A DNA stretch of 32,000 nt from Gallionellales bacterium GWA2_54_124 (GCA_001801025.1 MGWO01000007.1:1217576-1249575), one strand, 5' to 3'. Counted from the first letter of the stretch, positions 5,883-32,000 are shown. The notes: a model not told the origin generated them from the letters alone. Program-made: numbers and translations.

Positions 5883-5928
5883 GGCTCAACTCAATTAACC
5901 CCGCTGCCAAACAGCGGGGCTTTCAGCT

Positions 5929-19500: not shown

Positions 19501-19672
19501 GACGGTGGTCGCGATCATGGCGGGCCTGTTGCCTATCCTGTGGAGCACGGGTACGGGGTCTGAAGTGATGCGACGCATCGCCGCCCCAATGGTGGGCGGC
19601 ATGATTTCGTCGGCTATTCTGACGCTGTTGGTCATCCCGGTGCTGTTTGCGCTGGTAAAAGGAAAAAAATGA
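16568..19672 (+). CDS. cusA: Heavy-metal efflux RND pump, CusA type (Cu/Ag)
   Basis: 1034 aa. The TM4 signature GGIAIAIGAMVDAAIVMIENAHK matches the monovalent-cation (CusA) class rather than the CzcA DFGIIVDGAV class. Confidence 0.92.
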   Translation: MLQNIIVWSARNRFLVLLATGFIVLAGVYAMYKTPLDALPDLSDVQVIVYTEYSGQAPQVVEDQVTYPLTTAMLAVPKSRVVRGFSFFGASFVYVIFEDGTDIYWARSRVLESLASIAGRMPAGVAPQLGPDATGVGWVYQYAVLSEKHNLAQLRTMQDWYLRYQLTKAHGVSEVASIGGFVQQYQVSVDPVKLRAYGIALKTISQVIRDSNRDVGGRVVEMGETEYMVRGRGYLRGKTDIETLVVKADRGTPVLLRDIARVELGPDERRGLTELDGEGEVVAGIAMARFGENALEVIENLKHKLTEVSAGLPEGVSIRAVYDRSELIKRAIDTLKHTLLEEGLIVALVCMVFLLHVRSALVAILMLPAGVLIAFIAMHALGMNSNIMSLGGIAIAIGAMVDAAIVMIENAHKHIERLGEGESRSDAIIAACREVGPSLFFSLLIITVSFLPVFTLESQEGRLFSPLAYTKTFSMAGAALLSVTLVPVLMLLFIRGPILPEQKNPLNRWMIRFYRPLIAAVLSKQKTTVAIALLVLALSVYPAMRLGSEFMPTLNEGSLLYMPASLPGMSVTKAAELLQTQDKIIKSFPEVASVFGKAGRAQTATDPAPLEMFETVINLKPQDQWRPGMTTDKLVAQMDQALQFPGVANSWTMPIKARIDMLSTGIRTPIGIKVFGKNLEEMEQLSKQIESVVRQVPGTSSAYAERLTGGAYLDIEPDRMALARYGLTVGDVQDVIATALGGETVTTTVEGRERFGVNVRYPRDLRGTPEEIAREVLVTTQDGAMIPLGQVARVIINRGAPSIRTENALLSAYIYVDIRDRDIGSFVADARRAVNQQVKFPPGYYATWSGQFEYMERAYARMKIVIPITLLLIFLLLYLNFKRVTDSLIVMLSVPFALVGGLWLLWLLDYNVSVAVAVGFIALSGVAAETGVVMLIYLEQSWQAVLARCKDEGRAATVQDLHDAIMHGAVERVRPKMMTVVAIMAGLLPILWSTGTGSEVMRRIAAPMVGGMISSAILTLLVIPVLFALVKGKK

Positions 19673-19726
19673 CAGGCAACGTGATTGAACTTGATGGGCA
19701 ATTGTTAAAATTAAAGCGGATTCGCA

Positions 19727-19822
19727 TTAATACCAACGTATGCAATCACCGGCGGTTTGGGGTCTGGAAAATCGCTCGTTTCTATCGGCCGCATTCAAGA
19801 TTATTTGAAACATGGTAGTCGT
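19727..19822 (+). pseudogene. zot / pI assembly ATPase, N-terminal fragment (Walker A only)
   Basis: In-frame translation reads LIPTYAITGGLGSGKSLVSIGRIQDYLKHGSR, the P-loop N-terminus typical of Zot-like proteins. There is no ATG, and homology stops abruptly at the terminator hairpin at 19824. Confidence 0.65.
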
Positions 19823-19850
19823 AAGGGGGCTTGCGCCCCCTCTTTTTTTA
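19823..19850. terminator. Conserved bidirectional terminator hairpin, copy A
   Basis: AGGGGGC-ttgc-GCCCCCT followed by a T-run. The same hairpin recurs at 21117-21140 and 28419-28438. Confidence 0.7.
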
Positions 19851-19866
19851 CGGTTATGAGAATTGT

Positions 19867-20112
19867 TTAGAAAAATGATTTCAGTACTAAAGCCACAACG
19901 CCGCCCAGTACTAAGCCGGTCATCCATTTTAATATCTGAAGTTCTGCTTTCATGGGTGCTAGTTCTAATTGAATGTCTTTTTTTGTGACTAGCTCCTGAT
20001 CGTTGGACGCATCGCGGTAGGCGTTCGCAATTGCTTCGGCCTGGTTGTTTTGCATACCGCTGGCTTCAGGTGTTTTAACGAATTTCAGGGTGTCGAATGT
20101 AACGGTGCTCAT
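19867..20112 (-). CDS. DUF1640/CCDC90-like small membrane-anchored coiled-coil protein (cargo copy A)
   Basis: 81 aa: MSTVTFDTLKFVK...QAEAIANAY...LVTKKDIQ...C-terminal TM helix. The FDT-x-KFV / AEAIA pattern is recalled from the DUF1640 family. Paralog at 28441-28686. Confidence 0.6.
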   Translation of the reverse strand: MSTVTFDTLKFVKTPEASGMQNNQAEAIANAYRDASNDQELVTKKDIQLELAPMKAELQILKWMTGLVLGGVVALVLKSFF

Positions 20113-20136
20113 GATGTTCTTTTCGGTTGATGGTTA

Positions 20137-20165
20137 AGACTAAATCATTTTCACTACATTAGCAA
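20137..20165 (-). promoter_or_regulatory. Candidate sigma70 promoter of cargo slot (copy A)
   Basis: On the minus strand: TTGCTA (20165-20160), 17 nt, TAGTCT (20142-20137). The block is retained in all three copies. In copy C, homology begins about 5 nt upstream of the -35. Confidence 0.45.
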
Positions 20166-20330
20166 TTTAGTGACCACTCGATGCACTCTCCTGGACGTAA
20201 AAAAACTTTCCGCCTCGATGCTCAACCGTCCCGCTTTTTGCCCGAGAAGAAAAAAGGGTTTCGGGCGGTGTTGATCTGCTGGATCTGACCCGAAGACCGT
20301 AGGGTTCGGCAGTCGTCCCGCCGAAGGTTA
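20138..20330. repeat. 193-bp repeat R, copy A (cargo leader plus 165-bp structured distal part)
   Basis: Aligned by eye to 21691-21883, it shows 3 mismatches in 193 nt. The first roughly 30 nt also match 28711-28743. Confidence 0.9.
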
Positions 20331-20332
20331 AC

Positions 20333-20950
20333 GGTTTGATTGTTCTTGATGATTTTTAATTCGCGTGAATGGGCTGACAAGGGCAGGGCGGCTGTTATCG
20401 CATGGCTTCGCCATTCTCGTAAACTCGGTTGGGATGTCATTTACATTATGCAAGACGTGAATTCTATTGATAAGCAGATTCGCGCCGGATTGATTGAGCA
20501 TGAGGGCGTTTGTAAGCGTTCTGACCGTATGTCATTGCCTTTTGTTGGTGGTATTTTACGTGCTCTCGGTCTTGGTTTTTTGAGTCGTCCGCCTCGTGTT
20601 CATGTCTGCACTGTTAAATATGGCCTTTCCCAGCATGCTCTGTCGTTGATCGTTGGATGTATCGTGGTGTCTTGCTTCAGGATGGTTACGACACGAATCA
20701 GATTTTTAGTGAATTTGATGTTAACGGTGACTCTGTCGGCATTCATTCTATCTTAAGTCCTTGGCATACGCGGGGGCGTTATTTGCCTCCGCCGTTTTTG
20801 ACTCTTTTTCTGCTCTACCTTCGTGGTACTCCTTGGCGAAAGCCGGTTTCAACCTTCAAGCATCCGTTGGTTTCTCGCATCATGAAATTACCGCCGGAAC
20901 GGCGGATAGAGTTTTTCAATCGTTTTGATTCTTGCGGTGCATTTTCATGA
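20333..20950 (+). pseudogene. zot / pI assembly protein body, at least two frameshifts
   Basis: Walker B GLIVLDD (frame 2) hits a stop and the protein resumes in another frame as FNSREWADKGR...HSRKLGWDVIYIMQDVNSIDKQIR. A second shift near 20650 leads into RWMYRGVLLQDGYDTNQIF...LSPWHTRGRY. Confidence 0.7.
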
Positions 20951-21066
20951 GGTTGGTTATTTTGTGTTGCTTGGCTGTCTCGGCTTGTTCGTTTCCTTCG
21001 CATCGTGATGTTTATCTTGATTGGTACAAGTGTATGCAAAACAATTATGTGAAAGATTGTGATTGA
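20947..21066 (+). CDS. Small lipoprotein overlapping zot stop (ATGA), copy 0
   Basis: 39 aa: MRLVILCCLAVSAC|SFPSHRDVYLDWYKCMQNNYVKDCD. Lipobox-like signal and a shared W-x2-C-x8-DC pattern with the ORF at 28177-28308, which sits in the same position. Too short for the ORF track. Confidence 0.55.
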   Translation: MRLVILCCLAVSACSFPSHRDVYLDWYKCMQNNYVKDCD

Positions 21067-21110
21067 GATTTCCCGATCACAGCTGTATGCCGCGTCTTTA
21101 CTGGGTTTGA

Positions 21111-21146
21111 AAAAAGAAAAGGGGGCTTTCGCCCCCTTTTTTTCTC
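21111..21146. terminator. Conserved bidirectional terminator hairpin, copy B
   Basis: AAAAGGGGGC-tttc-GCCCCCTTTT, with an A-run before and a T-run after. Confidence 0.75.
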
Positions 21147-21163
21147 TGGCCGTTGGCTAATTG

Positions 21164-21391
21164 TTAAGCTGTTGCATACCGCCTTACATCTAACTCAACG
21201 CCATGTTGTGCGGCCTGATTTGCTTGCTCTAACAATGATCGGGTGATTTTTGCATCGTGGTAAGCCTCTCCGCAATTTTCACAAACTTCTGCGGGAACGT
21301 TTTTAAACATCATTGTCGAGTTGCCGCGTTCTAGCGTAATGCTTGCAACACCGTGTTGTGTATTTCCGTGTTTGCAAATTGGACATTTCAT
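21164..21391 (-). CDS. MqsA/YgiT-type zinc-ribbon antitoxin-like protein
   Basis: 75 aa: MKCPICKHG...NVPAEVCENCGEAYHD (CxxC...CxxC, YgiT-type zinc-finger pattern). It starts 2 nt after the stop of the upstream DUF4258 gene. Confidence 0.7.
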   Translation of the reverse strand: MKCPICKHGNTQHGVASITLERGNSTMMFKNVPAEVCENCGEAYHDAKITRSLLEQANQAAQHGVELDVRRYATA

Positions 21392-21393
21392 TT

Positions 21394-21666
21394 TTATCTC
21401 CTTGTTTTCAGGTCTTCGAGCCAGATTTCTGGGTTTGGCTCGTATACCGTAATTATGATTCTGATGTCTTCGTCGACAGAGTCGGCGTATACAACGTGAA
21501 CAGCCTTGTTTCCTGCATGTCCTAATAACAGTGCGCTAGGATAGGGCGTGTCATTCGGGTATGCCTCAATAATTGTTCCGGTTTCAATTGCCTGTTCTAC
21601 GTCAATTTCTGATATGCAACGCTCATGCATTCGCTTGATGGCGTGTTGTCTGTAAATTATCCGCAT
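21394..21666 (-). CDS. DUF4258-family toxin-like protein
   Basis: MRIIYRQHAIKRMHERCISEIDVEQAIETGTIIEAYPNDTPYPSALLLG...HVVYA...IIITVYEPNPEIW matches my recollection of the DUF4258 pattern. Start set at the ATG at 21666, which follows the conserved leader/RBS. Confidence 0.7.
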   Translation of the reverse strand: MRIIYRQHAIKRMHERCISEIDVEQAIETGTIIEAYPNDTPYPSALLLGHAGNKAVHVVYADSVDEDIRIIITVYEPNPEIWLEDLKTRR

Positions 21667-21690
21667 GCTTTTCCTTCGTTTGATTGTCAA

Positions 21691-21883
21691 GACTAAATGA
21701 TTTTCACTACATTAGCAATTTAGTGACCACTCGATGCACTCTCCTGGACGTAAAAAAACTTTCCGCCTCGATGCTCAACCGTCCCGCTTTTTGCCCGAGA
21801 GGAAAAAAGGGTTTCTGGCGGTGTTGATCTGCTGGATCTGACCCGAAGACCGTAGGGTTCGGCAGTCGTCCCGCCGAAGGTTA
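21691..21883. repeat. 193-bp repeat R, copy B
   Basis: See 20138-20330. The two flanks diverge immediately after ...CCGCCGAAGGTTA. Confidence 0.9.
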
Positions 21884-21969
21884 TCCAGTCAGCGCGCAGC
21901 CTGTTTTTTAATCACGGAGCTTTTCGCCGTTGATTTTTATTTATCGCGCTGGGGTGTTATTGTGACTTT

Positions 21970-22226
21970 ATGATATTTCATCCATACCCAGTTTGGTCTG
22001 TTGTAATCCGTAATCATTTTTGGACTCTGCGTTATATTCGCGGATTCAATGAGTCGCGGAGACGTCAGCAATATTGGCTAATCGAGAAAGAAAAAAACGC
22101 CTGTATGAAACAGGCGTTGATAGTGAAGTGGTGCGGTTGTTATGCCGAGATATGGCAATTCCTCGGAATCCTCATGCTGAAAAGCGCTTTTGGGATGAAT
22201 TTCATAAGCCCGCGAATTCTCCATAA
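21970..22226 (+). pseudogene. attP-adjacent 85-aa basic protein homolog, frameshifted in an A7 tract
   Basis: The first 42 codons parallel 29460-29717 with many synonymous differences. After A7 (22091-22097, versus A8 in the other copy) homology continues in the +1 frame (KRLYETGVDSEVVRLLCR...KRFWDEFHKPANSP, stop at 22224-22226). Confidence 0.7.
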
Positions 22227-22608
22227 TTTTCTTCTTATATTTGACATAATATACATTTGAATTCAACGAGTTACGATCTAACCCTATCAATTCACTTGCA
22301 TTTGCTGGGGCAGGTGTCATGTTTAAAATGACAGCACCTAATATCACCGACGCGGCATGACTCACAAAAGGGAGCAATACCGCTCTTCTTTCCTGATTTT
22401 TTTCTGTTATTAATTCGCTTGCTGAAATTACTTCCATTTCATTTATTGTTAATAGTTGAGCAATTTGACAACAAACTGCGATTGGTAAACCTGCGCGTCC
22501 GTTTTTTGCATTTGTAATTTGTTGAGAAGATACGCCAAGATAATCGGCTAATTCCTTTTGGCTCCCGACTTCCATTATTGCTAAGACAATGTAATTTTTC
22601 ATATTCAT
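22078..22608 (-). CDS. HTH (Cro/CI-type) phage repressor-like protein; ORF reads through the dif-like site
   Basis: MNMKNYIVLAIMEVGSQKELADYLGVSSQQITNAKNGRAGLP is an HTH. A hydrophobic segment follows (ASVILGAVILNM). AGGAG RBS before the ATG at 22608. There is no stop before the attachment site, and the 28-mer itself encodes NSNVYYVKY. Confidence 0.65.
   Translation of the reverse strand: MNMKNYIVLAIMEVGSQKELADYLGVSSQQITNAKNGRAGLPIAVCCQIAQLLTINEMEVISASELITEKNQERRAVLLPFVSHAASVILGAVILNMTPAPANASELIGLDRNSLNSNVYYVKYKKKIMENSRAYEIHPKSAFQHEDSEELPYLGITTAPLHYQRLFHTGVFFFLD
22096..22118 (-). terminator. Minus-strand intrinsic terminator embedded in the 85-aa ORF (copy 0)
   Basis: AACGCCTG / CAGGCGTT stem. 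On the minus strand it is followed by the T7 run. It lies downstream of the repressor gene, across the dif-like site. Confidence 0.55.
22239..22266 (-). other. dif-like XerC/D site, hybrid (XerD arm and spacer intact, XerC arm degenerate)
   Basis: Plus strand: ATTTGACATAA TATACA TTTGAATTCAA. The reverse complement of the first 17 nt is TGTATA-TTATGTCAAAT, against E. coli dif TGTATA-TTATGTTAAAT. The last 11 nt do not resemble a XerC arm. Confidence 0.7.
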
Positions 22609-22620
22609 TATTTTCTCCTG

Positions 22621-22688
22621 TTGACATACAAATTTATTTGATTTATTGTGTCGATCAAATAAGTTTGTATGCAATTAAATTTGTATGC
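22621..22688 (+). promoter_or_regulatory. Rightward promoter candidate plus three operator-like 9-mers
   Basis: TTGACA (22621-22626), 17 nt, TATTGT (22644-22649). TTTGTATGC occurs at 22664-22672 and 22680-22688, and its near-complement ACATACAAA at 22624-22632. Confidence 0.5.
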
Positions 22689-22737
22689 GCTTAGATTGCA
22701 CCAAACAGCGCAACAAGTCAATCAACAGGGGGCAGGA

Positions 22738-22968
22738 ATGCAAAACGGACAACCAGCACAGCAAAGGCTTATAGGCGTTTCTGGCATTATTCCCGTGCAT
22801 CTTGAAAACCGTCTACACAATTTAGCAGCTTCAAACCGCCGCGATTTCGACTTAGATTACTCGGACACGTTCGCTCAGGTGATCGCGCTAGGTGTCGATG
22901 CATTACAGTCCAGACGTTCGTCGGCCTATGTCCGGTCAACTGAAATTATGAAAAAGGTTTGCGGCTAA
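22738..22968 (+). CDS. Hypothetical small protein upstream of rep
   Basis: 76 aa from the ATG at 22738 (GGGGGCAGGA RBS). TAATG overlap with the in-frame rep ATG at 22968. No recognisable motif. Confidence 0.4.
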   Translation: MQNGQPAQQRLIGVSGIIPVHLENRLHNLAASNRRDFDLDYSDTFAQVIALGVDALQSRRSSAYVRSTEIMKKVCG

Positions 22969-24092
22969 TGACTCCTGCAAACCAACAGGCGCTTGAGGCT
23001 TTACAGGCTTACGACCTCGCGCATCCTCCCGTTGAGTCTGTCTCAACACAACCAGAATTTTTCAAGATAGTGCTGACTGATGATTCCAAATGTCCGGTCA
23101 AGCTAATACCGAATCGCATGTCATCTGGGGATGGTGTTGCATTCCTCGATTGGGTCAATTTCACTATCCACGAATCAACCATGATTGACTCTGCTTTAGA
23201 GGGGCAGTGTTTTTCTGACGAAGATTTCATGGTTTCGTTTTCTCGCATCCTCTTTAAGATTTTCGGCTTTGGTCTTACTTCTCGCATGAGTACCGGATCT
23301 GATTTCTACCAAAAAAGATGGGTGCTAGGGGAGGGCTTCGGCTTTGTCTGTTTCGGCGGCAATAACTCAACCGTCTTGACCAAGCTTTCTGGCACTGGCT
23401 GTGCGGCTGCTCTGCACGGTTGGGAATCTCGGTTAAGAAATTTCCTAGAGTATCAAGCTGTCCAGCCTCGTATCACGCGCCTCGATCTGGCGCACGATGT
23501 CTATGATGGTCAATCCTACAATGTGGATAGAGCTTCCAGTGATTACGATGCTGGCTTATTTTCTTCCGGCGGTCGCTCTCCGAATATCGAACTGCGCGGC
23601 AACTGGCGCACGCCAAACGGCAAAGGCCGCACGGTCTATGTCGGCGCAAGATCAAACGGTAAATATCTCCGCGTCTATGAGAAGGGCCGTCAGCTGGGCG
23701 ATGCTACATCTGAGTGGGTTCGTATCGAGGTTGAAATTAAATCCATTGATCGCGTTATCCCTTTTGATGCTCTGGTTAAGGCTGGCGAATATCTCGCGGC
23801 AACTTATCCGGCGCTCAATTTTCTGTCCGTTAAGCAATGTCGCATTGAAACAATTTCCCGTACTGCTAAGGCTGGCTATGCGCACACGGTTGCATGGTTA
23901 AAACATCAGTGTGGATCATCTTTGGCTCTGGTCGCTGAGATAGAGGGCGGGGCGGATCAGGCTCTTGATCTTATAAAACGCCCGATAGTTTTAAAGGGTG
24001 CTTTGCTCGTACCGTCTTGTGATACGCATCTAGTTCCTATTCATGATCGTGAGCGATTGGAGCATCCCGATATGGTTTTACCTGAATTCTGA
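22959..24092 (+). CDS. Rolling-circle replication initiation protein (Rep_trans / RstA-like)
   Basis: ITRLDLAHDV...GRTVYVGARSNGKYLRVYEKG...EWVRIEVEIK is the pattern of replication-initiation-factor (RstA-type) proteins of filamentous phages. The start may be the TTG at 22959 or the ATG at 22968. Confidence 0.75.
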   Translation: MRLMTPANQQALEALQAYDLAHPPVESVSTQPEFFKIVLTDDSKCPVKLIPNRMSSGDGVAFLDWVNFTIHESTMIDSALEGQCFSDEDFMVSFSRILFKIFGFGLTSRMSTGSDFYQKRWVLGEGFGFVCFGGNNSTVLTKLSGTGCAAALHGWESRLRNFLEYQAVQPRITRLDLAHDVYDGQSYNVDRASSDYDAGLFSSGGRSPNIELRGNWRTPNGKGRTVYVGARSNGKYLRVYEKGRQLGDATSEWVRIEVEIKSIDRVIPFDALVKAGEYLAATYPALNFLSVKQCRIETISRTAKAGYAHTVAWLKHQCGSSLALVAEIEGGADQALDLIKRPIVLKGALLVPSCDTHLVPIHDRERLEHPDMVLPEF

Positions 24093-24163
24093 TTTTTGAT
24101 TACCTCCTGTTTCCGGCGCTCAGGGTCAAAGGTATAGCCGTAGTAATTTATAAGGAAATTGTC

Positions 24164-24457
24164 ATGAAATTTAAAGCCTCTGTTGTTGTTACTGGTCTGA
24201 AGCGTTCTAAAGGCGATATGGAAGGTACGCCTTATGACTTTACGTCTGTTTTTATTCAGGTTGATTTAGACGAATCTACAAAAAACGCTCGCGGTCAGGC
24301 TGTTGAACCGTACAAGCTTGGCACGTCAGACAATTACGCGACTTTCGACGGTTTCCAGTTGCCGTTTAATGCGATGGCTGAGTTTGAAATTACAACTACG
24401 GGCAAAGTCGCAAAGCAAAAATTGCTTTCCCTTGTTCCTGTTCCTGCTCGTCCGTAA
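24164..24457 (+). CDS. Candidate ssDNA-binding protein (gpV analogue)
   Basis: 97 aa, immediately after rep, with an AAGGAA RBS. The assignment rests on size and position only. Confidence 0.35.
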   Translation: MKFKASVVVTGLKRSKGDMEGTPYDFTSVFIQVDLDESTKNARGQAVEPYKLGTSDNYATFDGFQLPFNAMAEFEITTTGKVAKQKLLSLVPVPARP

Positions 24458-24681
24458 TGCAATCCCCTGCGCTCCGTCAAGTTTGGGTTATCCAGTGCAA
24501 AAGCACGGGGGCTTTCTTGACGCCTGAACAAGGCTTTGCTGCAAGCCTAAAGAGGGCAGGGCGTTTGTTCAATCCTGATGAAGTCAGAGAGACGGCTTTT
24601 GATGCGCTCGATGACGATTATGAGGTTCATACCTTCTACGAGGTTGTGCAAATGCTTGAGGGTTTTCGTCATTATGAGTAG
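24457..24681 (+). CDS. Hypothetical protein
   Basis: 74 aa with a TAATG overlap with the upstream ORF. No motif recognised. Confidence 0.4.
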   Translation: MQSPALRQVWVIQCKSTGAFLTPEQGFAASLKRAGRLFNPDEVRETAFDALDDDYEVHTFYEVVQMLEGFRHYE

Positions 24682-24692
24682 CTTTTTCAATG

Positions 24693-24718
24693 CCCCCCCC
24701 CCCACATAAGATGGGGGG
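24693..24718. repeat. C11 homopolymer / G6 hairpin in intergenic region
   Basis: C x11 at 24693-24703, a 9-nt spacer, then G x6 at 24713-24718. Confidence 0.8.
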
Positions 24719-24778
24719 AAAGTATCTTTGTAAGTATGTATGTAGGGTATTTTCCCAAAATTTTATAGGGTTGGATTC

Positions 24779-24967
24779 TTGATGTTTAGTGAACATTCCA
24801 TCACTGCCGACTGGTTCATTCAGCAAGTCATATTAGCCCTGATTCATAGTGCTGTTTATGGCATGGCTTACCACTTTTTCAAAGGGCTGTCCCTCGGTGG
24901 TGCGGTGTTGGCTTGCTTGTGTCTGCTGGTCGTAGCGTGGCTCGCATTTAAACTTTTTAGGCGTTAG
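24779..24967 (+). CDS. Small two-TM membrane protein
   Basis: 62 aa with two hydrophobic helices. Its position is typical of minor virion or morphogenesis proteins. Confidence 0.4.
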   Translation: MMFSEHSITADWFIQQVILALIHSAVYGMAYHFFKGLSLGGAVLACLCLLVVAWLAFKLFRR

Positions 24968-24976
24968 GTCAATTAA

Positions 24977-25288
24977 ATGGCTTTTACTTGCGTCCCAGTC
25001 GTTGCTCAGTGGGGTACTGTCTCCTACATCAACACGAATCAAGCCGCATGCGCTGCTAATCAGTGGGCTGTGTTCACCTCTGCTGATTTGACTGCCTATA
25101 ACGCATCTTTAACCGCTGGCACGGCTTCAACCCCTGCCGTTACACAAACAACGTCATTCTTTCCCTCGATGACGATTGCGGAGGCTCTGCCCATATTTGC
25201 AGCTATCTCGCTGCTGTGGGGGCTGGCTTTCACCTTGAGGGCTATTGGTAATTTTCTAAAACCTAAATCTGGAGATTCAAATGATTAA
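24977..25288 (+). CDS. Small C-terminally anchored protein (possible minor coat protein)
   Basis: 103 aa with a C-terminal TM (LPIFAAISLLWGLAFTL). Its first 120 nt recur with one synonymous change at 31881-32000. Confidence 0.5.
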   Translation: MAFTCVPVVAQWGTVSYINTNQAACAANQWAVFTSADLTAYNASLTAGTASTPAVTQTTSFFPSMTIAEALPIFAAISLLWGLAFTLRAIGNFLKPKSGDSND

Positions 25289-25499
25289 AAAACTGAAAAA
25301 CGCGCTGATTCGTAAACAATTCAAGATCGCTGCTGGCGCTGGTGCGCTTCTGGCTGCTGGCTCGTCACAAGCTGCCATCGATGTAACTGGCGTTACAGCT
25401 GCCCTCACTGATGGTTTGACCGCTGTAGGTACGATCGGCGGTGCTGTTCTGCTCATTTGGGGGACAAAGAAGGTTTACGCCCTCATTTCCGGTCGTTAA
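25281..25499 (+). CDS. Major coat protein (gpVIII-like)
   Basis: 72 aa. Signal peptide ending SSQA|A, then a mature roughly 40-aa peptide with an acidic N-terminus, a hydrophobic core and a basic C-terminus (WGTKKVYALISGR). GGAG RBS and a strong terminator after it. Confidence 0.75.
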   Translation: MIKKLKNALIRKQFKIAAGAGALLAAGSSQAAIDVTGVTAALTDGLTAVGTIGGAVLLIWGTKKVYALISGR

Positions 25500-25518
25500 T
25501 CTTCAGTAAACAAATAAT

Positions 25519-25555
25519 TCCCCTTGTTGCGCGTAGCCTCAAGGGGATTTTTTTT
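25519..25555 (+). terminator. Rho-independent terminator after coat gene
   Basis: TCCCCTTG / CAAGGGGA stem, 13-nt loop, T8 run. Confidence 0.8.
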
Positions 25556-25608
25556 AAGGGGTATAAATTGGAAGGTTATCTTTTGTTACTCGGGCTTATC
25601 GGTGCTTT

Positions 25609-26886
25609 ATGGATTCTCTTCGCTCCCTAGTTTTACTTCTCGCCGTGTTTTTTTCCGGCCATGCTTTTGCTGGTGTTGATTACTCTCAACCCCAGCAGTC
25701 ATTCTCTGCACAAAGCTTGTCAGGTTCTTTTTCTAGCGCTGGGCTTATGCTTTCCGCTTTTATGTCTCATTTTCCGCAATATACGTCCTGTACTTTTGAT
25801 GGCGTCAACTCGCATCCAATTCTCTGCGATGGCACTGGCGGCGGCGGACCTTATACTCAGCAACCTATGGGTGTCGGTTATGCTTCTGCCCCTCTTTGCC
25901 CTTTATCATCTACGTTTAATTCTGTTTCTGGTCAGTGCGAAAAGCCAAATTCATGTACGGCTGGCCAGACTATTTTTGCTGGTCGTTGGTCGTCTATGCC
26001 CTCAAACGGCTGTAATTCAGGGTGTAATGCAGTTTGGACAGGCTCAAACGTTGCGGGAAGTTCCTCTAATTTTTCCGGTTCTGCTGTCCTCGATGGGTCG
26101 TCATGTTCTGGTGGATCGGCTGTGCCTCCTCCTGATTTGCAGGATATAACGGCTTGTCCATCTGGCCCGACTGGCCCGACTTCCTGCGCTGCTGGCGAAT
26201 CACTCGTTATTCAGGGTTGTACAGCATCTTGCTCCCCTAATACTCAGTCTGGTACTTCCGGATCAACGACTGGCGGCACTACTGGCGGCACTACTGGCGG
26301 TACAACTGGTGGCACAACTGGTGGCACAACTGGTGGTACAACTGGCGGTACAACAGGCGGTACAACTACCACAAACAACACGACAAACAATGTTGATATG
26401 TCGCCCGTCACGGCTGCGGTCGATGCTGCAACGGCTGCAATCAAGGCAGGAACGCTTGTCCAGTACTGCATCGATCATCCTGATGCGAATATCTGTCAGA
26501 CCAATGTCATTAATGCCGCTTGCGGTTCTTTTAACTGCTCTGGTGACGCTATTCAGTGCGCGATCGCAAAAGATCAATTTGACCTTCATTGCAAGCTTGC
26601 TAATGAGCAAAACGCCAATCTTGATATAGGCAAAAGGATGATTGATGGAACGGACACTAGCGTCAGAAATCCCGCTGATGTCGCTAACCGCTCCACTTTC
26701 TCAATTGGTTCTTTGGATATGAGTTCCCCCATTGCGGCCAAGTGCCCGGACGATGTTGTTTTTACTGTCATGGGTAAGTCGTCAACTTTGCCGTTGTCTC
26801 TCTGGTGTCCTTATCTCGCTCTTGTCGGCAATGTTTTCATGGCCTTGTCTCTTGTCGCTGCTGCTAAAATTATCGGAGGTGTTTAA
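25609..26886 (+). CDS. Adsorption / minor coat protein (gpIII-like)
   Basis: 425 aa. Signal peptide, Cys-rich N-terminal domains, (TTGG)x8 flexible linker, C-terminal membrane anchor. Confidence 0.7.
   Translation: MDSLRSLVLLLAVFFSGHAFAGVDYSQPQQSFSAQSLSGSFSSAGLMLSAFMSHFPQYTSCTFDGVNSHPILCDGTGGGGPYTQQPMGVGYASAPLCPLSSTFNSVSGQCEKPNSCTAGQTIFAGRWSSMPSNGCNSGCNAVWTGSNVAGSSSNFSGSAVLDGSSCSGGSAVPPPDLQDITACPSGPTGPTSCAAGESLVIQGCTASCSPNTQSGTSGSTTGGTTGGTTGGTTGGTTGGTTGGTTGGTTGGTTTTNNTTNNVDMSPVTAAVDAATAAIKAGTLVQYCIDHPDANICQTNVINAACGSFNCSGDAIQCAIAKDQFDLHCKLANEQNANLDIGKRMIDGTDTSVRNPADVANRSTFSIGSLDMSSPIAAKCPDDVVFTVMGKSSTLPLSLWCPYLALVGNVFMALSLVAAAKIIGGV
26266..26361 (+). repeat. 12-bp tandem repeat x8 encoding (TTGG)n linker
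   Basis: ACN ACN GGN GGN is repeated 8 times with synonymous third-position variation. Confidence 0.9.
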
Positions 26887-27191
26887 TGCCCGCAATTGGT
26901 GTTGTTATTGGCTGGCTTGTTGGTGCAATTGGCCTTACGCTTGCAAATTGGGTCGGTCGTGTTTTGGTTGCTCTCGGTATTTCTTACATCACGTTCAGCG
27001 GTGTTGATCTACTGTTTTCGAGCCTAAAAACTGAAATTTGGTCACTGCTCGGCGGTGCTGGTCAGCTTTCCGGTGTCATCGGTCTTTCCCGCATTGGCGA
27101 ATCGGTCAACATCGTTTTTTCCGCCTTGATCGCTAAAATGTCCCTTTCTGGCATGACTGGCGGTAAGCTCACTAAACAGGTCATCAAGTAA
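26886..27191 (+). CDS. gpVI-like minor coat protein (DUF2523-like)
   Basis: 101 aa and hydrophobic. TAATG overlaps on both sides. Located immediately upstream of zot, as in many inoviruses. Confidence 0.6.
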   Translation: MPAIGVVIGWLVGAIGLTLANWVGRVLVALGISYITFSGVDLLFSSLKTEIWSLLGGAGQLSGVIGLSRIGESVNIVFSALIAKMSLSGMTGGKLTKQVIK

Positions 27192-28180
27192 TGGCTATCG
27201 ACCTAACGCCGCTTACTGTTGTCACAGGTTTGCCCGGATCGGGCAAGACGCTTTTTACTCTTACTGGTGTTGATGAGTACTCCAAGCGTGAAGGCTTCAA
27301 GGTCTACTATCACGGCATTCCTCAATTGACGCTTGATTGGGAAATGCTCGAAGAGCCTAAGCAGTGGCACAACCTGCCGAACAAGTCGATTATTGTCATC
27401 GACGAATCACAAAGTACGTTCCCGCCCCGATCATCGTCGGCCGCCATGCCTGAACATGTCGCAGCTGCCAATACCCTGCGCCACAAGTCGCACATGCTGG
27501 TTTTGATTACGCAGCATCCGATGCTGATCGACGGGTCGATCCGCAAGCTTTGCACAAAGCATTATCACGTTGAGCGTTTTTACGGCTTTCAAAAATCAAC
27601 GATTCATGAGTTTTTGAAGATCCGCGACAACTGCGACAAATCCACTAAAGGCTCTATCTCTACGCATTTTGTTTATCCAAAAGAGGTTTTTAACTGGTAC
27701 AAAAGTGCGGATATGCACACGATCAAGAGGCGCATCCCCGCGCGTCTTATTATGATTATTATTCTGCCTTTGATCGCTGTTGCGCTGGTTTATTTATTCA
27801 TCAAAACTGTGGGAGGTTTGACTACTGGAGATAAGATTAAAGGGGGGGCTGCTTCACCCACCACCGGAGTTCAAGCGGTTTCAGGTGTCATTGCCGTTCC
27901 TGTTTGGACTGACACATTAAAGCCTCGGTTGTCCGGTTTTCCGCACACAGCCCCGCGTTATGATGAAGTGACTAAGCCGACTGTTGCGCCTTATCCCGCC
28001 GCGTGTGTTTCGTCTGAATCTCGTTGTGTCTGTCACACGCAACAGGGAACTAAAATGCTTGTCGATGATGCTCTTTGTCGGAGCATTGCCAGCAACGGAT
28101 TTTTTAATGATTTTCTTGAGAAAAAAACGGATTCATCGCCTGTTTCTCAAGTCCCTCGGCCTTCGTTATCGTCGCTATGA
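27191..28180 (+). CDS. Zot-like / gpI assembly ATPase
   Basis: Walker A VVTGLPGSGKT, Walker B IIVIDESQ, a mid-protein TM segment (LIMIIILPLIAVALVYLF) and a periplasmic C-terminal domain. Confidence 0.85.
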   Translation: MAIDLTPLTVVTGLPGSGKTLFTLTGVDEYSKREGFKVYYHGIPQLTLDWEMLEEPKQWHNLPNKSIIVIDESQSTFPPRSSSAAMPEHVAAANTLRHKSHMLVLITQHPMLIDGSIRKLCTKHYHVERFYGFQKSTIHEFLKIRDNCDKSTKGSISTHFVYPKEVFNWYKSADMHTIKRRIPARLIMIIILPLIAVALVYLFIKTVGGLTTGDKIKGGAASPTTGVQAVSGVIAVPVWTDTLKPRLSGFPHTAPRYDEVTKPTVAPYPAACVSSESRCVCHTQQGTKMLVDDALCRSIASNGFFNDFLEKKTDSSPVSQVPRPSLSSL

Positions 28181-28308
28181 TTAAAAAACTTTTCTGGATT
28201 CTGATGGTCGTTTTGATGTCTGGCTGCATGTCTACGCCTGAATCCCGCCATGCTGAAACTGCTGCATGGTGGTCTTGTACTAATCTCCATCGTGTTGGAG
28301 ATTGCTGA
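28177..28308 (+). CDS. Small lipoprotein overlapping zot stop (ATGA)
   Basis: 43 aa: MIKKLFWILMVVLMSGC|MSTPESRHAETAAWWSCTNLHRVGDC. Lipobox LMSGC. Homologous in position and Cys pattern to 20947-21066. Confidence 0.55.
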   Translation: MIKKLFWILMVVLMSGCMSTPESRHAETAAWWSCTNLHRVGDC

Positions 28309-28410
28309 ATATCGAGGCGAAGCGCACGCGGCTAACGAAGTGCCGCGAAGCTCGCCCGATATTTATTTTCTTCGATCGCAGCTGTATGCCGCGTATTTAC
28401 TGGGTTTTAT

Positions 28411-28442
28411 AAAAAGGGAAGGGGGCTTGCGCCCCCTTTTTT
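28411..28442. terminator. Conserved bidirectional terminator hairpin, copy C
   Basis: AAGGGGGC-ttgc-GCCCCCTT flanked by A- and T-runs. Confidence 0.75.
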
Positions 28443-28686
28443 AATGCATTTTCATCAGTATTCCGATTAAAACGGAGAATTGAGCTAGTGCTAGGCCGAT
28501 AATCCATTTAAGCATATCGAATTTCATATCGGTCAGCTGAATTTGTAGATCTTGTTTTGTTACGAGCTCTCTGTCGTCTGATGCGCTTTGATAGGCATTT
28601 GCAATTCCTTTTGCTCTCTCTTCGTCAAAACCGCTTTTTTTAAGTATTTCAACGAATTTCAGGGTGTCGAATGTCACTGTGCTCAT
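28441..28686 (-). CDS. DUF1640/CCDC90-like small membrane-anchored protein (cargo copy C)
   Basis: 81 aa: MSTVTFDTLKFVEILKKSGFDEERAKGIANAY...LVTKQDLQ...TM helix. The N-terminal 12 aa are identical to copy A and the rest has diverged. Confidence 0.6.
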   Translation of the reverse strand: MSTVTFDTLKFVEILKKSGFDEERAKGIANAYQSASDDRELVTKQDLQIQLTDMKFDMLKWIIGLALAQFSVLIGILMKMH

Positions 28687-28743
28687 GATGTTCCTTTCGG
28701 TTGATGGTTAAGACTAAATCATTTTCACTGCATTAGCAATTTA
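28687..28743. repeat. Cargo leader/promoter, copy C (truncated R)
   Basis: Matches 20113-20169 with 2 mismatches by eye. Homology ends right after the -35 TTGCTA, at the stop codon of the next ORF. Confidence 0.85.
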
Positions 28744-29145
28744 CGCGAATAACTGCCTGTTTTTTTTGGGTGTCCAGTCAGCCCATTTTAGAATATCTGC
28801 CACAATTACCAGCTCGAGCACGTCTTGAATGGGTGCAACTTGCTTGGCCGCTGGCATTTTGAAATTCTTTACCCATTTTTTCAGCCATTCGGCTGAATTT
28901 TCCTTAATCTCGGCCATGATTTGCAAGGCCACGCCAACAGCATCAACGAAGTCCAGCCACGTTTGACGGGCTTTAAATTCCGCGTTTTTCATGTATCTGC
29001 AATTGTTGATTTTCATGGTTTTGGTATTCCCAGCATCTTCCAGAATCTTGAGCCTGCTTTTGATTTCCTCGCGGTGCAGGTTTCTGCCGCTTGCTTCTTT
29101 GCTTCTCCCGTCATCCCGTCGCCTTGCGATATCAGCTCGTAGCAA
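28741..29145 (-). CDS. Orphan hypothetical protein occupying the position of the distal part of repeat R
   Basis: 134-aa ORF with a TTG start; internal ATGs would give 91 or 83 aa. No recognisable motif and no clear RBS. Confidence 0.35.
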   Translation of the reverse strand: MLRADIARRRDDGRSKEASGRNLHREEIKSRLKILEDAGNTKTMKINNCRYMKNAEFKARQTWLDFVDAVGVALQIMAEIKENSAEWLKKWVKNFKMPAAKQVAPIQDVLELVIVADILKWADWTPKKNRQLFA

Positions 29146-29459
29146 TTTTAATAATCAACGATTTTGGCAAGATCGCAGTTTTTGCGGCTGTATCGCAAAA
29201 AACGATTGCCGCAAAACCCGAAGGGCGCACAGTCTCACCGTGCGTTGTTGATTATTGAAATTGTCGGAGGGAAGATTCGCGTTTTAGGCGGCGGGGTGAT
29301 GGGAAAGCATTTGCGGAGTGCTGCACGGTCGAGTCAAAAAATAGAGCACCCGAAGGGTGACGACCTAACAGACAGTTTCACCCGTCTGTTAGCCTTTTAA
29401 TGCAGTTGGCATTGCGCCGTTGATTTTGATTTATTGCGTAGCGGTGGTATTCTGAAAAA

Positions 29460-29717
29460 ATGATATTCCATCAATACCCCAACTGGTCAGGCACGATTTT
29501 GAGTCATTACTGGTATCTGCGTTACTTCCGCTCGTTTCAGGAGGCTAGACGGCGCAAACAATACCGGCTGATCGCGAAGGAAAAAAAACGCCTGCATGAA
29601 ACAGGCGTTGATAGTGAGTTGGTGCGGTTGCTATGCCGTCATGCGGCAAATCCTCGGAATCAACATGCTGCAAAACGCTTTTGGGATGCTTTGCACAAGC
29701 CTGCGGAATCTTCTTAA
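29460..29717 (+). CDS. Conserved attP-adjacent 85-aa basic protein
   Basis: Compared with 21970-22226, many differences are synonymous or conservative (F, P, S, I, Y, R, L, K codons), which indicates purifying selection. Arg/Lys-rich. No family recognised. Confidence 0.6.
   Translation: MIFHQYPNWSGTILSHYWYLRYFRSFQEARRRKQYRLIAKEKKRLHETGVDSELVRLLCRHAANPRNQHAAKRFWDALHKPAESS
29587..29609 (-). terminator. Minus-strand intrinsic terminator embedded in the 85-aa ORF
   Basis: AACGCCTG / CAGGCGTT stem followed on the minus strand by T8 (29581-29588). Confidence 0.55.
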
Positions 29718-29728
29718 TTTACTAATCA

Positions 29729-29756
29729 ATTTGACATAATATACATTATGCGTATT
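29729..29756 (-). other. dif-like XerC/D recombination site, near consensus
   Basis: The reverse complement reads AATACGCATAA TGTATA TTATGTCAAAT, against E. coli dif GGTGCGCATAA TGTATA TTATGTTAAAT. The spacer is identical, the XerD arm matches 10/11, and the XerC arm shares CGCATAA. Confidence 0.8.
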
Positions 29757-30120
29757 TAAAACGCCTAAAAACGCCTCCCTGCGTTTTTACGAGGTCTTGC
29801 CCTGTCCATAAGGTAGCGATGCAAAGCAAGGCCATTATGAGGCCTCTCAGGGGCTGCTTTACACGCAAGCGAAAACCCGCCCAGAACTTTTGCTCTGTTT
29901 CGTTCTTCGCGCTCAATTCCTCAAACTCCGCTATCAACGCCAATGGATCCAACCCAAGACATTCCGCGATCTTCATCAGCGCATAGGCATTCGGTACACG
30001 TTTGCATTTCATGTATTCGCTGATTCTTTGTGTCGGAATCTTCAGTTCTTTTGCTAGTGCGTAATCGCTGGAAATCTTTAGCTTGATTTTGCAGTCTTTC
30101 AAAAGTTCGCTGGTTCTCAT
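29746..30120 (-). CDS. HTH phage repressor-like protein with hydrophobic C-terminal segment
   Basis: MRTSELLKDCKIKLKISSDYALAKELKIPTQRISEYMKCKRVP is an HTH. GGAGAG RBS before the ATG at 30120. The TAA stop is the first 3 nt of the XerC arm. The C-terminus contains LRGLIMALLCIATLW. Confidence 0.65.
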   Translation of the reverse strand: MRTSELLKDCKIKLKISSDYALAKELKIPTQRISEYMKCKRVPNAYALMKIAECLGLDPLALIAEFEELSAKNETEQKFWAGFRLRVKQPLRGLIMALLCIATLWTGQDLVKTQGGVFRRFKYA

Positions 30121-30255
30121 TTTTCTCTCCGGTAGTCCGACTGTTTCAGTTGGCAGCTGTATTTTATCCCGTTTTTGGGGATTGACAATCTCCCACTTAT
30201 CGGGATACATTCGGCTATCCCATATTTCGGGACAATTAACCGACAAAGGAACATC
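30121..30255. promoter_or_regulatory. Divergent control region with repeated heptamers
   Basis: TTGACA at 30182-30187 with TACATT 18 nt downstream. TATCCCG (30165-30171), CGGGATA (30201-30207), TATCCCA (30216-30222) and CGGGACA (30228-30234) occur in alternating orientation. Confidence 0.45.
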
Positions 30256-30546
30256 ATGACCATCCGCATCGAAGTCAAAAGCGCAAAAGTAGTCGAAGTT
30301 AACGGCACCTCAAAAGCCGGAAAACCCTTTCATATCGTCAAACAAGCCGCATGGGCTTACACCTACGATTCGTTCGGTGAACTCAATCCCTTCCCAGAAC
30401 GCATCGAAATGAGTATCGCAGACGGCGCACAACCCTATCCGGTCGGAAATTACACCCTCGACCCCCGCTCATTCTTCGTCGGCGATTTCAACAGCCTGTC
30501 AGTCGGTCGCCTCATTCTCGCGCCAGTGACAGTTCGTCCGGCTTAA
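30256..30546 (+). CDS. ssDNA-binding protein (gpV-like)
   Basis: 96 aa: MTIRIEVKSAKVVEVNG...PFPERIEM...YPVGNYTLDPRSFFVGDFNSLSVGRLILAP resembles helix-destabilising proteins of Pf/Xanthomonas-type inoviruses. AAAGGA RBS. Confidence 0.6.
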   Translation: MTIRIEVKSAKVVEVNGTSKAGKPFHIVKQAAWAYTYDSFGELNPFPERIEMSIADGAQPYPVGNYTLDPRSFFVGDFNSLSVGRLILAPVTVRPA

Positions 30547-30727
30547 TCATGTTCCTCCCAAAAATCTCCCCCGATTTTTCCTCGTCCTCACCGACGGGGT
30601 TTTTTGCTGCGTCCTCTGGTTCGAAAAAACCCGCCTTTGTCGGTGTCGAGGTCGCAGCAAAAAACCTGAGAATTGACCCTACAAAAAAGTTGGTCATTTC
30701 TTGTTCTGGGGTAACACGTAGCCAATC

Positions 30728-30790
30728 ATTCCCAATATGGGAATTTTATCTCTACTTTTACCCCCTGCCATTCAGTCTCAAATTGAGACT
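30728..30790. promoter_or_regulatory. Two palindromes upstream of rep (operator or origin candidates)
   Basis: ATTCCCA-ata-TGGGAAT at 30728-30744 and a perfect 17-bp palindrome AGTCTCAAATTGAGACT at 30774-30790. Confidence 0.4.
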
Positions 30791-30816
30791 TTTCTAAAAC
30801 CATATCGGGGGATATT

Positions 30817-31881
30817 TTGAACGATGCACACTATGACAATGACGGGTTGTTTGTTGACTGGCTCACCCTGTGGCAAGTCCATCCCGCACACGGCGCTATC
30901 AATTCAGGATGTGTTCGAACCCTTGACGGAAGTTCAAAGGTCGTTTTTGAGAGAACTCGCGCCGCGCGCATTCAGGGAAGTTATGCAAGTTCATGCTCTG
31001 TTAAGAGTGACGGTTCTTGTGTCGTTTTCTCGGGCAATTTCGGACGGTTTAACCGTTACGACAATCTTTTCAACTATGACCCTGCGAAAACCCTCGAACG
31101 CGCCAACGTGGTTGCAGAGTTCGCAGGATTCCCCCCCTTCCGCCTTCACGATCTCCGAGACAACACAGCTACCGCCCCAGATTTCAGCGCCTTGGTTGGA
31201 CCATCTCGCGCAGCTTTCAGGGAAGCCGAAGCACGAGCATCTTTTGTCAACTTATCCCGTGTTGACCTCACTAAAAACTATTCATGCGGAAGCCTTGGCG
31301 CTGCCCGTGCATTGATCAAGGCGATACAGGGAAAATCTGTTTCACGCGTAAAAAAGGGGATCGGTGGCGATGCTTCTGTCTGGTGGTCTAACACCCGTTA
31401 CATGCTCAAGGTCTACATCAAGGCTTTGGAAATGGAGGCGCATGGCATTACCAGCGGCAGGGCTTACGAATACGCCCGTGACAATGGGATTGTGCGGCTT
31501 GAACTGGAGTTAAAACGCCGTGAGCTTCACGATCTGGGCTGGAACGATTACGCATTATTTTTGAAAGGATGGGAAATGGGTACAGTTCATAAATTATTTT
31601 CTGACTACGCAAAAATCATGGAAACGGTAGCTATCTCAGATGATGCTGAATTCATCGACTCACTGCCTCAACGGCTTCGCGTCACTGCGGCTGCTTTCTT
31701 AGCTGGTCGTGATGTTAAAAGCATCATGTCCAATGGTGGTTTTTATCGTCACCGTAAAGCTCTCCTCGAATATGGCATCGACATCGCTGACGAGCGTCCA
31801 GCGCGCATCAACGTCCAGATTCAACAGGTCACTGTAACGCCCGTTACCGCTCCAGACTGGTATTGGGGGAATGCAGCGTAA
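30817..31881 (+). CDS. Replication initiation protein (gpII/X-like), different from the Rep at 22959
   Basis: 354 aa, TTG start with a GGGGGA RBS. VDWLTL, SGNFGRFNRYDNLFNY, LSRVDLTKN and YIKALEME recall gene-II/X family proteins. By eye the only similarity to the other Rep is the R[LV]DL motif. Confidence 0.55.
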   Translation: MNDAHYDNDGLFVDWLTLWQVHPAHGAINSGCVRTLDGSSKVVFERTRAARIQGSYASSCSVKSDGSCVVFSGNFGRFNRYDNLFNYDPAKTLERANVVAEFAGFPPFRLHDLRDNTATAPDFSALVGPSRAAFREAEARASFVNLSRVDLTKNYSCGSLGAARALIKAIQGKSVSRVKKGIGGDASVWWSNTRYMLKVYIKALEMEAHGITSGRAYEYARDNGIVRLELELKRRELHDLGWNDYALFLKGWEMGTVHKLFSDYAKIMETVAISDDAEFIDSLPQRLRVTAAAFLAGRDVKSIMSNGGFYRHRKALLEYGIDIADERPARINVQIQQVTVTPVTAPDWYWGNAA

Positions 31882-32000
31882 TGGCTTTTACTTGCGTCCC
31901 AGTTGTTGCTCAGTGGGGTACTGTCTCCTACATCAACACGAATCAAGCCGCATGCGCTGCTAATCAGTGGGCTGTGTTCACCTCTGCTGATTTGACTGCC
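31881..32000 (+). CDS. Start of structural module (homolog of 24977-25288), 3' end outside window
   Basis: 120 nt match 24977-25096 except for one synonymous GTC/GTT change. TAATG overlap with rep. Confidence 0.6.
   Translation, partial: MAFTCVPVVAQWGTVSYINTNQAACAANQWAVFTSADLTA

Follow-up and report, generated by a model that had tools for sequence, protein, structure and literature searches.

We asked what function is served by a small gene that stands at the very end of a filamentous prophage, beside a dif-like recombination site, in Gallionellales bacterium GWA2_54_124. The window, meaning the whole 32,000-nucleotide (nt) stretch of DNA analyzed, covers the final 32 kb of contig C7 in a betaproteobacterial genome assembly of 2.9 Mb. 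The gene, for which we use the working name gene85 (its product is P0001), encodes 85 residues on the plus strand (29460–29717) and is the last gene of an intact inovirus prophage, here called phage 2, ahead of the phage attachment site attP. A second, frameshifted copy (copy A, plus strand, 21970–22226) lies in a decayed remnant, and the intact gene is also referred to as copy B. Lacking their own integrase, elements that exploit the host Xer recombinases carry toxins and other cargo into the chromosomes of bacteria. Judged from sequence, the locus is the lysogeny module of such an Xer-exploiting integrative mobile element (IMEX), and its attP-side gene belongs to an undescribed family and bears a dual-coded terminator. 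The best overall explanation, to which we give somewhat less than an even chance, is that gene85 would form the attP-proximal end of this module, in which gene85 and a helix-turn-helix (HTH) repressor gene converge on attP, in dif-integrating filamentous prophages and remnants of Betaproteobacteria; that it would carry an embedded terminator for the opposite strand; and that its product may assist XerC and XerD at the adjoining site.

As the original prediction had claimed, gene85 encodes a basic protein (isoelectric point 10.4; 17 Lys and Arg versus 7 Asp and Glu) that is under selection. Copy A aligned to copy B over the full length, and comparison of its two halves, each in its own frame, with copy B gave a ratio of nonsynonymous to synonymous substitution rates (dN/dS) of 0.20 at a synonymous divergence (dS) of ~1.0, with 58 of 84 residues identical. 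It follows that the two copies are divergent alleles with a history of purifying selection. We found 35 close homologues of P0001, the closest being from Gallionella, Nitrotoga and Nitrosomonadales, and a profile search (E≤1e-3) enlarged the family to 343 clusters at 50% identity, almost all of 65–150 residues. Among 401 sampled genomes of the order, the family was carried by 17 genomes in 10 of 167 genera; a family member beside an att site was found in the families Nitrosomonadaceae, Gallionellaceae and Rhodocyclaceae and in the genera Undibacterium and Ralstonia. Alignment A4 of the family showed R21, R32, R36, E41, K43 and L45 to be invariant and Y17, W18, R24, K42, R44, G49, V50 and C59 to be nearly so.

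Structure prediction had been proposed as a check on this protein. The AlphaFold2 model (predicted local distance difference test score, pLDDT, 85) consisted of four helices (residues 8–21, 28–48, 52–63 and 68–79) and no strands, and Foldseek returned no significant neighbour in PDB (best E 4.5) or BFVD (best E 1.3). Pfam gave no match for P0001 at E≤0.1 and none for 36 family members at E≤10, and a PDB sequence search with the family profile gave 0 matches at E≤10. P0001 matched phrog_27692, a group of unknown function (E=4.7e-8, residues 13–64) whose members include two "Inoviridae sp." genomes from Manatee Spring, and a tblastn search of the phage collection with P0001 (E≤0.01) hit just two Inoviridae records. 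Distant members (MW202693, L055) kept the motif EK.RL...GV, lacked the hairpin described below and still abutted the site. Because of the dN/dS of 0.20, the 343 clusters, the confident AlphaFold2 model and the motif kept by distant members without a hairpin, we regard it as confirmed, at the level of sequence, that gene85 is a real phage gene of a family widely conserved in Betaproteobacteria and under selection. Among ten longer family members, Pfam found one Rep fusion and nine proteins without any match; a miscalled gene or a satellite probably accounts for the fusion. One sub-family, from Undibacterium and Ralstonia (L045, L048, L050, L051 and L057), has an N-terminal extension and a Cys-rich C-terminus, CCRLxC...C..C, which resembles a zinc-binding motif.

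The original prediction also placed inside gene85 an A8 tract and a stem that would act on the minus strand as an intrinsic terminator, and a terminator scan, folding, compensatory changes and frozen synonymous sites all spoke for it. The putative terminator spans 29581–29609 on the minus strand and comprises a stem (29587–29609) with a 5-nt loop followed by U8. On the plus strand, the A8 tract lies at 29581–29588, and the stem is formed by CGCCTG (29589–29594) and CAGGCG (29602–29607), extendable to 9 pairs, 5 of them GC. The scan called the element on the minus strand (29609 to 29587, T tract next), the minus-strand RNA at the hairpin folded with −14.2 kcal/mol (z = −4.4), and U8 stands directly 3' of the hairpin on the minus strand only.

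The most conserved block of the protein, E41-K-K-R-L-x-x-x-G-V50, coincides with GAAAAAAAACGCCTN(5-7)NAGGCG, and ~45 of 52 loci kept this nucleotide sequence, including loci with less than 40% protein identity. Within the block, R44 was encoded by CGC in 38 of 39 cases, compared with 42 of 120 (35%) at three other invariant Arg columns pooled (Fisher 6e-13), and A48 by GCA in 27 of 28, compared with 7 of 33 at A70 (Fisher 1.5e-9). K42 and K43 together used AAA in 76 of 79 cases (19 of 29 at other Lys columns; Fisher 8e-5), E41 used GAA in 39 of 40 (43 of 66 at other Glu columns; Fisher 7e-5), and G49 used GGC in 38 of 40 (5 of 8 at another Gly column; Fisher 0.03). The stem occurred as CGCCTG/CAGGCG, CGCCTT/AAGGCG and CGCCTA/TAGGCG, with C-G, A-T, T-A or G-C as the seventh pair. 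Read on the minus strand, pair 6 was GC in 38 loci, UA in 4 and UG in 5, and pair 7 was CG in 36, UG in 3 and AU in 2; the five loci with U.G at pair 6 would have a C.A mismatch if read on the plus strand. On the minus strand 97% of cells were paired, and 0 of 500 shuffles matched the pairing or covariation seen. Relatedness among the loci means that the pairing cells are not independent events, but the stem variants do fall in different clades. That gene85 embeds a minus-strand Rho-independent terminator, conserved with compensatory changes, is well supported by these comparisons. Ten codons would be constrained by both the protein and the opposite-strand terminator, a clean natural case of dual coding.

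The same A tract and hairpin might instead give rise to two products, by programmed −1 frameshifting or by transcriptional slippage. A_AAA_AAA is a perfect zero-frame slippery heptamer with a hairpin next to it, and A7 alleles recur. Structures that stimulate −1 frameshifting lie 5–9 nt from the slippery site, whereas this hairpin begins 0–1 nt after the heptamer; the alternative frames meet stops and leave no conserved trans-frame product; the geometry exactly fits an opposite-strand terminator; and two alleles with a broken tract are damaged elsewhere as well (R36W and H61D in copy A, a mutated stem in L038). Programmed −1 frameshifting was rejected on the spacing and the missing product, and we consider this whole alternative very improbable.

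Copy A had been described as shifted in frame at an A7 tract, with the homologous C-terminus encoded in the +1 frame, and both alignment and translation agreed. The tract lies at 22091–22097; frame 1 reads ...EKEKNACMKQ, and the C-terminal half runs on in the +1 frame as RLYETGVDSEVVRLLCR.... Copy A also bears R36W at an invariant and H61D at a nearly invariant position of family alignment A2. These two substitutions and the wrecked surroundings make a true pseudogene likelier than an assembly error, and copy A is more likely a decaying pseudogene. Its embedded terminator is predicted at 22091–22118 on the minus strand (stem CGCCTGT/ACAGGCG, then U7; −13.9 kcal/mol, z −5.3). Breaks from A8 to A7 at exactly this tract were found in copy A, L026, L038, L047 and L075, although the break in L026 may be an artefact, since its contig name "tig" may mean a long-read assembly; L041 has a longer tract (11 A's as extracted), and only its C-terminal part was matched. 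The U tract of the terminator imposes A8, which makes this a hot spot for slippage where decaying copies have repeatedly lost the gene; this mutational cost of dual coding would hold whatever the role of the protein. Phase variation at the A tract is possible.

The terminator had been assigned to the repressor transcript that comes across attP, and the position of the repressor open reading frame (ORF), which stops just before the hairpin, points the same way. The phage 2 repressor (minus strand, 22267–22608) is a Cro/CI-type HTH protein (Pfam HTH_3/YdaS) whose gene is convergent with gene85 across attP. Its ORF is open through the att site and stops at 22078 as integrated (ORF span 22078–22674). 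At the reconstructed circular junction of phage 2, the repressor frame continues across the site (...NSNVYYVK...) to a stop ~18 nt short of the hairpin, and the homologous repressor ORFs in L025, L033 and L052 stop 25–40 nt ahead of it. Since the repressor has no stop before attP, integration alters its C-terminus. Aligned, the repressor family shows the HTH, then a conserved linker and a hydrophobic segment, and last a tail that the att site itself encodes. The tails ...VYYVK and ...YIM come from the dif-like sequence (phage 2, L025, L027, L033, L052 and L054), and in the repressor ORF the conserved hydrophobic segment and then an SPSPA motif precede the att site. AlphaFold2 and Foldseek returned only generic HTH_XRE repressors for the phage 2 protein, with a disordered C-terminus; the idea that this neighbouring repressor, instead of gene85, is the XafT/XafV-like factor was rejected on that result. 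A tblastn search of the repressor against phages gave no match.

In the explanation we favour, the terminator would end the convergent repressor transcript, or any transcription that enters via the att site, soon after attP has been crossed. We infer that integration would separate the repressor gene from the terminator and remove ~130–150 nt of antisense overlap with gene85. A third prophage (phage 3), which begins 3' of the dif-like site next to gene85, has its own HTH repressor ORF on the minus strand (29746–30246, start uncertain) with the stop codon within that site; as integrated, its transcript would therefore enter the terminator of gene85. The far end of phage 3 (C4:1-482) has no gene85 and carries a stand-alone CCGCCC/GGGCGG hairpin with U8 on the minus strand, ~8 nt from its VGJ-like att site TGTTTTCATAA-CTACGCA-TTATGCGTATT, with the host flank next. 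Since a prophage without gene85 has a stand-alone terminator there, the att-facing terminator seems to be a position-constrained element that gene85 carries written into its coding sequence.

This stand-alone terminator also speaks for an alternative in which gene85 owes its position to the terminator and to compaction alone, while its product does something with no bearing on attP, be it superinfection exclusion, modulation of the host or a moron-like function. Inovirus genomes are compact, and gene85 has no homology to any recombination protein. We nevertheless think this explanation unlikely, given how gene85 relatives are placed. The material retrieved was 48 loci from genomes, 3 viral contigs, 2 inovirus genomes from GenBank and one Ralstonia megaplasmid locus; we scored 55 loci, comprising 53 genome, viral and GenBank loci and the two window copies. 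In 47 of the 55, which are phylogenetically related so that the counts overstate independence, the dif-like site begins −11 to +44 nt from the stop codon, in two orientations and on several phage backbones. For gene85 itself, the claimed distance of 11 nt was exact, with the stop codon TAA at 29715–29717 and the dif-like 28-mer beginning at 29729. In a second, partly overlapping genome sample, the site adjoined the gene in 13 of 20 matches, and two more had half-sites. Zot lies 120–4200 nt upstream on the same strand with variable cargo between, and nothing ever lies between the gene and the site; that all variable cargo is upstream of gene85 speaks against compaction alone, as do the distant members that lack the hairpin and still adjoin the site.

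The arm of the site nearest the gene was the XerD arm in 35 loci and the XerC arm in 12, the latter mostly in Rhodocyclales and Undibacterium. Two convergent copies, each with A8 and a hairpin, flank one canonical site at L021:2130-2230, L028:6290-6410, L045:6240-6360 and L071. Such pairs, which compaction alone does not readily explain, fit successive integration of elements with opposite att-site configurations. Where the phage's own far arm could be read, namely in episomal genomes or at phage-phage junctions, it was not recognisable as an XerC arm (site 1 of the window, L025, L027, L033, L052, L054 and L055). Gene85 relatives were found with Rep_trans-type phages, with G2P-type phages and with a small Rep-only satellite-like element, and solitary copies stood beside dif in Nitrotoga (L012), in Thauera (L049) and on a Ralstonia solanacearum megaplasmid (L057).

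The megaplasmid copy (CP022791.1, 948.6–948.9 kb) lies 24 nt from the dif-like site TATTTTACATAATACAAATTATGCGACG; next to it are a Tn3 transposase and the gene for a type III effector, and the annotation of the 16-kb region inspected lists no inovirus genes. The circular inovirus MW202693.1 (L055) has its family member at 5915–6166, which is unannotated, two short opposite-strand ORFs being called there; the stop codon of this member overlaps the XerD arm of the attP ATTGAACATAA-TATACA-GTGTTTTAACA.

Phages 2 and 3 allowed a direct comparison of modules. The block swapped between them comprises gene85, attP, the repressor and Rep, and they have in common a structural stretch of 121 nt. A block upstream of gene85 (29410–29459, plus strand), CGCCGTTGATTTT.ATTTAT.GCG, was kept in copy A, copy B and L004; homology to the C4 end, which lacks gene85, stops inside this block, which thus marks a module boundary. 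A promoter scan found none for gene85 at 29410–29459. A TTGATT...TATTCT pair is conserved there, but its elements are 22 nt apart and the scan was negative, so that no promoter is claimed. The attP of phage 2, the phage with gene85, has a spacer identical to that of dif and no XerC arm, and would therefore need XerD catalysis or assisted synapsis; the attP of phage 3, the phage without it, has a canonical XerC arm, a divergent 7-bp spacer and a poor XerD arm.

Inheritance with the repressor/Rep module, and not with the structural module, would also suit a regulator of the lysogeny switch, such as an antirepressor or a small regulator that binds DNA or RNA, that is coupled to the repressor by convergent overlapping transcription and altered on integration. 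The protein is basic and helical with many invariant Arg residues, and the convergent repressor ORF and transcript overlap the 3' half of gene85, in antisense for ~130–150 nt up to the terminator. Several observations fit such a regulator poorly: the Cro-like slot, that of the first diverging plus-strand gene (22669–22968), is held by another ORF; solitary copies persist beside dif with no repressor nearby; gene85 pairs with unrelated types of repressor and Rep; and neither Pfam nor Foldseek recognised an HTH in it. We rate a regulatory role as rather unlikely.

The role that we favour for the basic four-helix product is an accessory or activating one, in which it would assist host XerC/XerD at the site beside its gene. 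Its function would then be analogous to that of XafT/XafV, although the folds are unrelated, and recombination independent of FtsK would become possible at an attP with a canonical XerD arm and spacer and no recognisable XerC arm. This reading draws on the conserved adjacency to attP, the type of attP, the inheritance with the module and the precedent of xafT and xafV, and we hold it tentatively, at somewhat below an even chance; that this genome lacks a DUF3653 gene also speaks for it. As a "recombination directionality factor" the protein is no better supported than as an "activation factor." To our knowledge, XafT/XafV (DUF3653) are the only structural family of Xer helper proteins known. 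The xafT and xafV genes each lie immediately beside attP (PMC6744903; bioRxiv 10.64898/2026.06.12.731946), and the authors of the XafT paper foresaw activation factors from another superfamily (PMC6744903).

XafT of the Vibrio cholerae element TLCphi (HTH_XRE plus DUF3653; PMC6744903, PMC9226527) resembles the gene85 product in being a small protein encoded beside the dif-like attP of an element without an integrase. It likewise comes from a terminal prophage gene opposite a repressor, rstR and xafT being the terminal gene pair of Vibrio CTX-I prophages (PMC12715192), and its attP also has one degenerate arm. In contrast, the gene85 product is predicted to be all-helical, with neither the DUF3653 beta-hairpin motifs nor an HTH_XRE domain; gene85 is transcribed towards attP; its role is a proposal from sequence; and the degenerate arm is the XerC arm in its element and the XerD arm in the XafT element. 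XafV (ORF136 of VGJphi-type IMEXs; bioRxiv 10.64898/2026.06.12.731946) is a second attP-side gene product that proved to be an Xer activation factor, acts in XerC-initiated reactions and is structurally related to XafT, unlike the gene85 product. In the VGJ attP both arms are retained and the 7-bp spacer is non-homologous, much as in phage 3, which lacks gene85; the VGJ/CTX-like attP design relies on basal XerC activity (PMC9226527).

A similar attP is reported for Ralstonia phage RSS0, like phage 2 a betaproteobacterial dif-integrating inovirus whose attP has the XerD arm and spacer of dif (PMC3816273). The RSS0 attP, TATTTAACATAAGATAAAT, lies in the 3' end of the reverse-oriented repressor ORF13, and integration changes the C-terminus of ORF13 (PMC3816273). 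RSS0 was not among the tblastn matches in the phage collection, and neither an embedded terminator nor an attP-side gene is described in PMC3816273.

PSB15 of the Xanthomonas phage phiLf-UK is, like the gene85 product, a small protein encoded near the repressor and attP of an integrative inovirus; it differs in being a DUF3653 protein encoded on the negative strand that binds the packaging signal and is dispensable for integration (bioRxiv 10.1101/2024.03.19.585677). This attP-region protein needed for assembly is the precedent for a further alternative, in which the gene85 product binds single-stranded phage DNA signals such as the packaging signal or a minus-strand origin near attP. We consider that improbable: the gene85 product does not resemble PSB15/DUF3653, at least part of the structural module (the 121-nt stretch) is also present in phage 3, which lacks gene85, and solitary copies stand beside dif without any phage.

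Several points weigh against an Xer-accessory role. The gene85 product has no experimental or structural link to XerC or XerD, and Pfam, AlphaFold2 and Foldseek revealed no similarity to DUF3653, XafT, XafV or any Xer-related protein. The characteristic DUF3653 beta-hairpin, often accompanied by an HTH_XRE domain, has LTG, WAGFxF and TPE motifs (bioRxiv 10.1101/2024.03.19.585677), and these were absent from alignments A2 and A4. DUF3653 (PF12375) matched none of the 36 family members at E≤10 and nothing in the whole genome at E≤1, so the original view that the protein does not look like XafT/DUF3653, with which the all-helical model also agrees, was upheld; the domain is rare among the 301 sampled genomes of the class, with a match in 1 and two sequences in all. 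PSB15 is a warning against arguing from position, since an Xer-related protein had been expected and a binder of the packaging signal was found (bioRxiv 10.1101/2024.03.19.585677), and the adjacency to attP, counted over related loci, could stem from genome compaction together with the need for a terminator there. For elements whose XerC arm faces the gene, the fetched flanks yielded no far (attL) end, so that it is mostly elements with a near XerD arm that carry the correlation with attP type. If RSS0 is in the phage collection searched by tblastn, the missing RSS0 match means that the factor is not universally needed for such an attP.

The broader proposal that gene85 represents a third class of Xer activation factor, unrelated to XafT/XafV and serving an attP that lacks the XerC arm, with integration rewiring the expression of gene85 and the repressor, strikes us as doubtful, though worth stating. 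The 85-residue family is a concrete, directly clonable candidate for an activation factor outside DUF3653, and it could serve as a marker for prophage ends and functional dif sites in Betaproteobacteria.

The surroundings of gene85 form a prophage array. The host genes cusCBA end at 19672 and are followed by a scrambled inovirus remnant (19672–22238) with Zot fragments, a DUF4258/MqsA-like pair and the frameshifted copy A. Junction site 1 (22239–22266) has the same XerD arm and spacer as site 2; next to these stands phage 2's own degenerate arm on the XerC side, TTTGAATTCAA. Phage 2 (22267–29728) comprises the minus-strand HTH repressor, Rep_trans, a pIII-like protein, Zot, a cargo region and gene85. 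Dif-like site 2, the 28-mer ATTTGACATAA-TATACA-TTATGCGTATT (29729–29756), is composed of the XerD arm ATTTGACATAA from phage 2, the spacer TATACA and the XerC arm TTATGCGTATT from phage 3, which has a different repressor and a G2P-type Rep. With Zot, a Rep_trans or G2P Rep, a pIII-like protein and sites at 22239 and 29729, the elements have the features of inovirus-type IMEXs, and no integrase ORF was seen in 19672–32000. An Rfam scan of 19600–32000 found nothing near gathering scores, and megablast of the whole prophage against the phage collection gave no match.

Contig C7 breaks within the 121-nt stretch common to phages 2 and 3, which is identical with one mismatch, and contig C4 starts with the end of phage 3 and the right host flank. 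GC skew changes sign, from ~+0.08 where C7 ends to ~−0.09 where C4 begins, which places the array at the replication terminus, i.e. at dif. The host dif sequence is ATTTGACATAATATACATTATGCGTATT. Since site 2 is a phage-phage hybrid and the sole fully canonical dif-like site of the whole assembly, the chromosome dimer resolution site probably lies inside the prophage array.

Two minor features of the remnant were also observed. A DUF4258/MqsA-like antitoxin pair (minus strand, 21164–21690) occupies its cargo slot, between the Zot fragments and copy A. A ~200-bp repeat (97% identical) is present at 20140–20330 and 21690–21880, and again at C4:135-337 upstream of the attP-side module.

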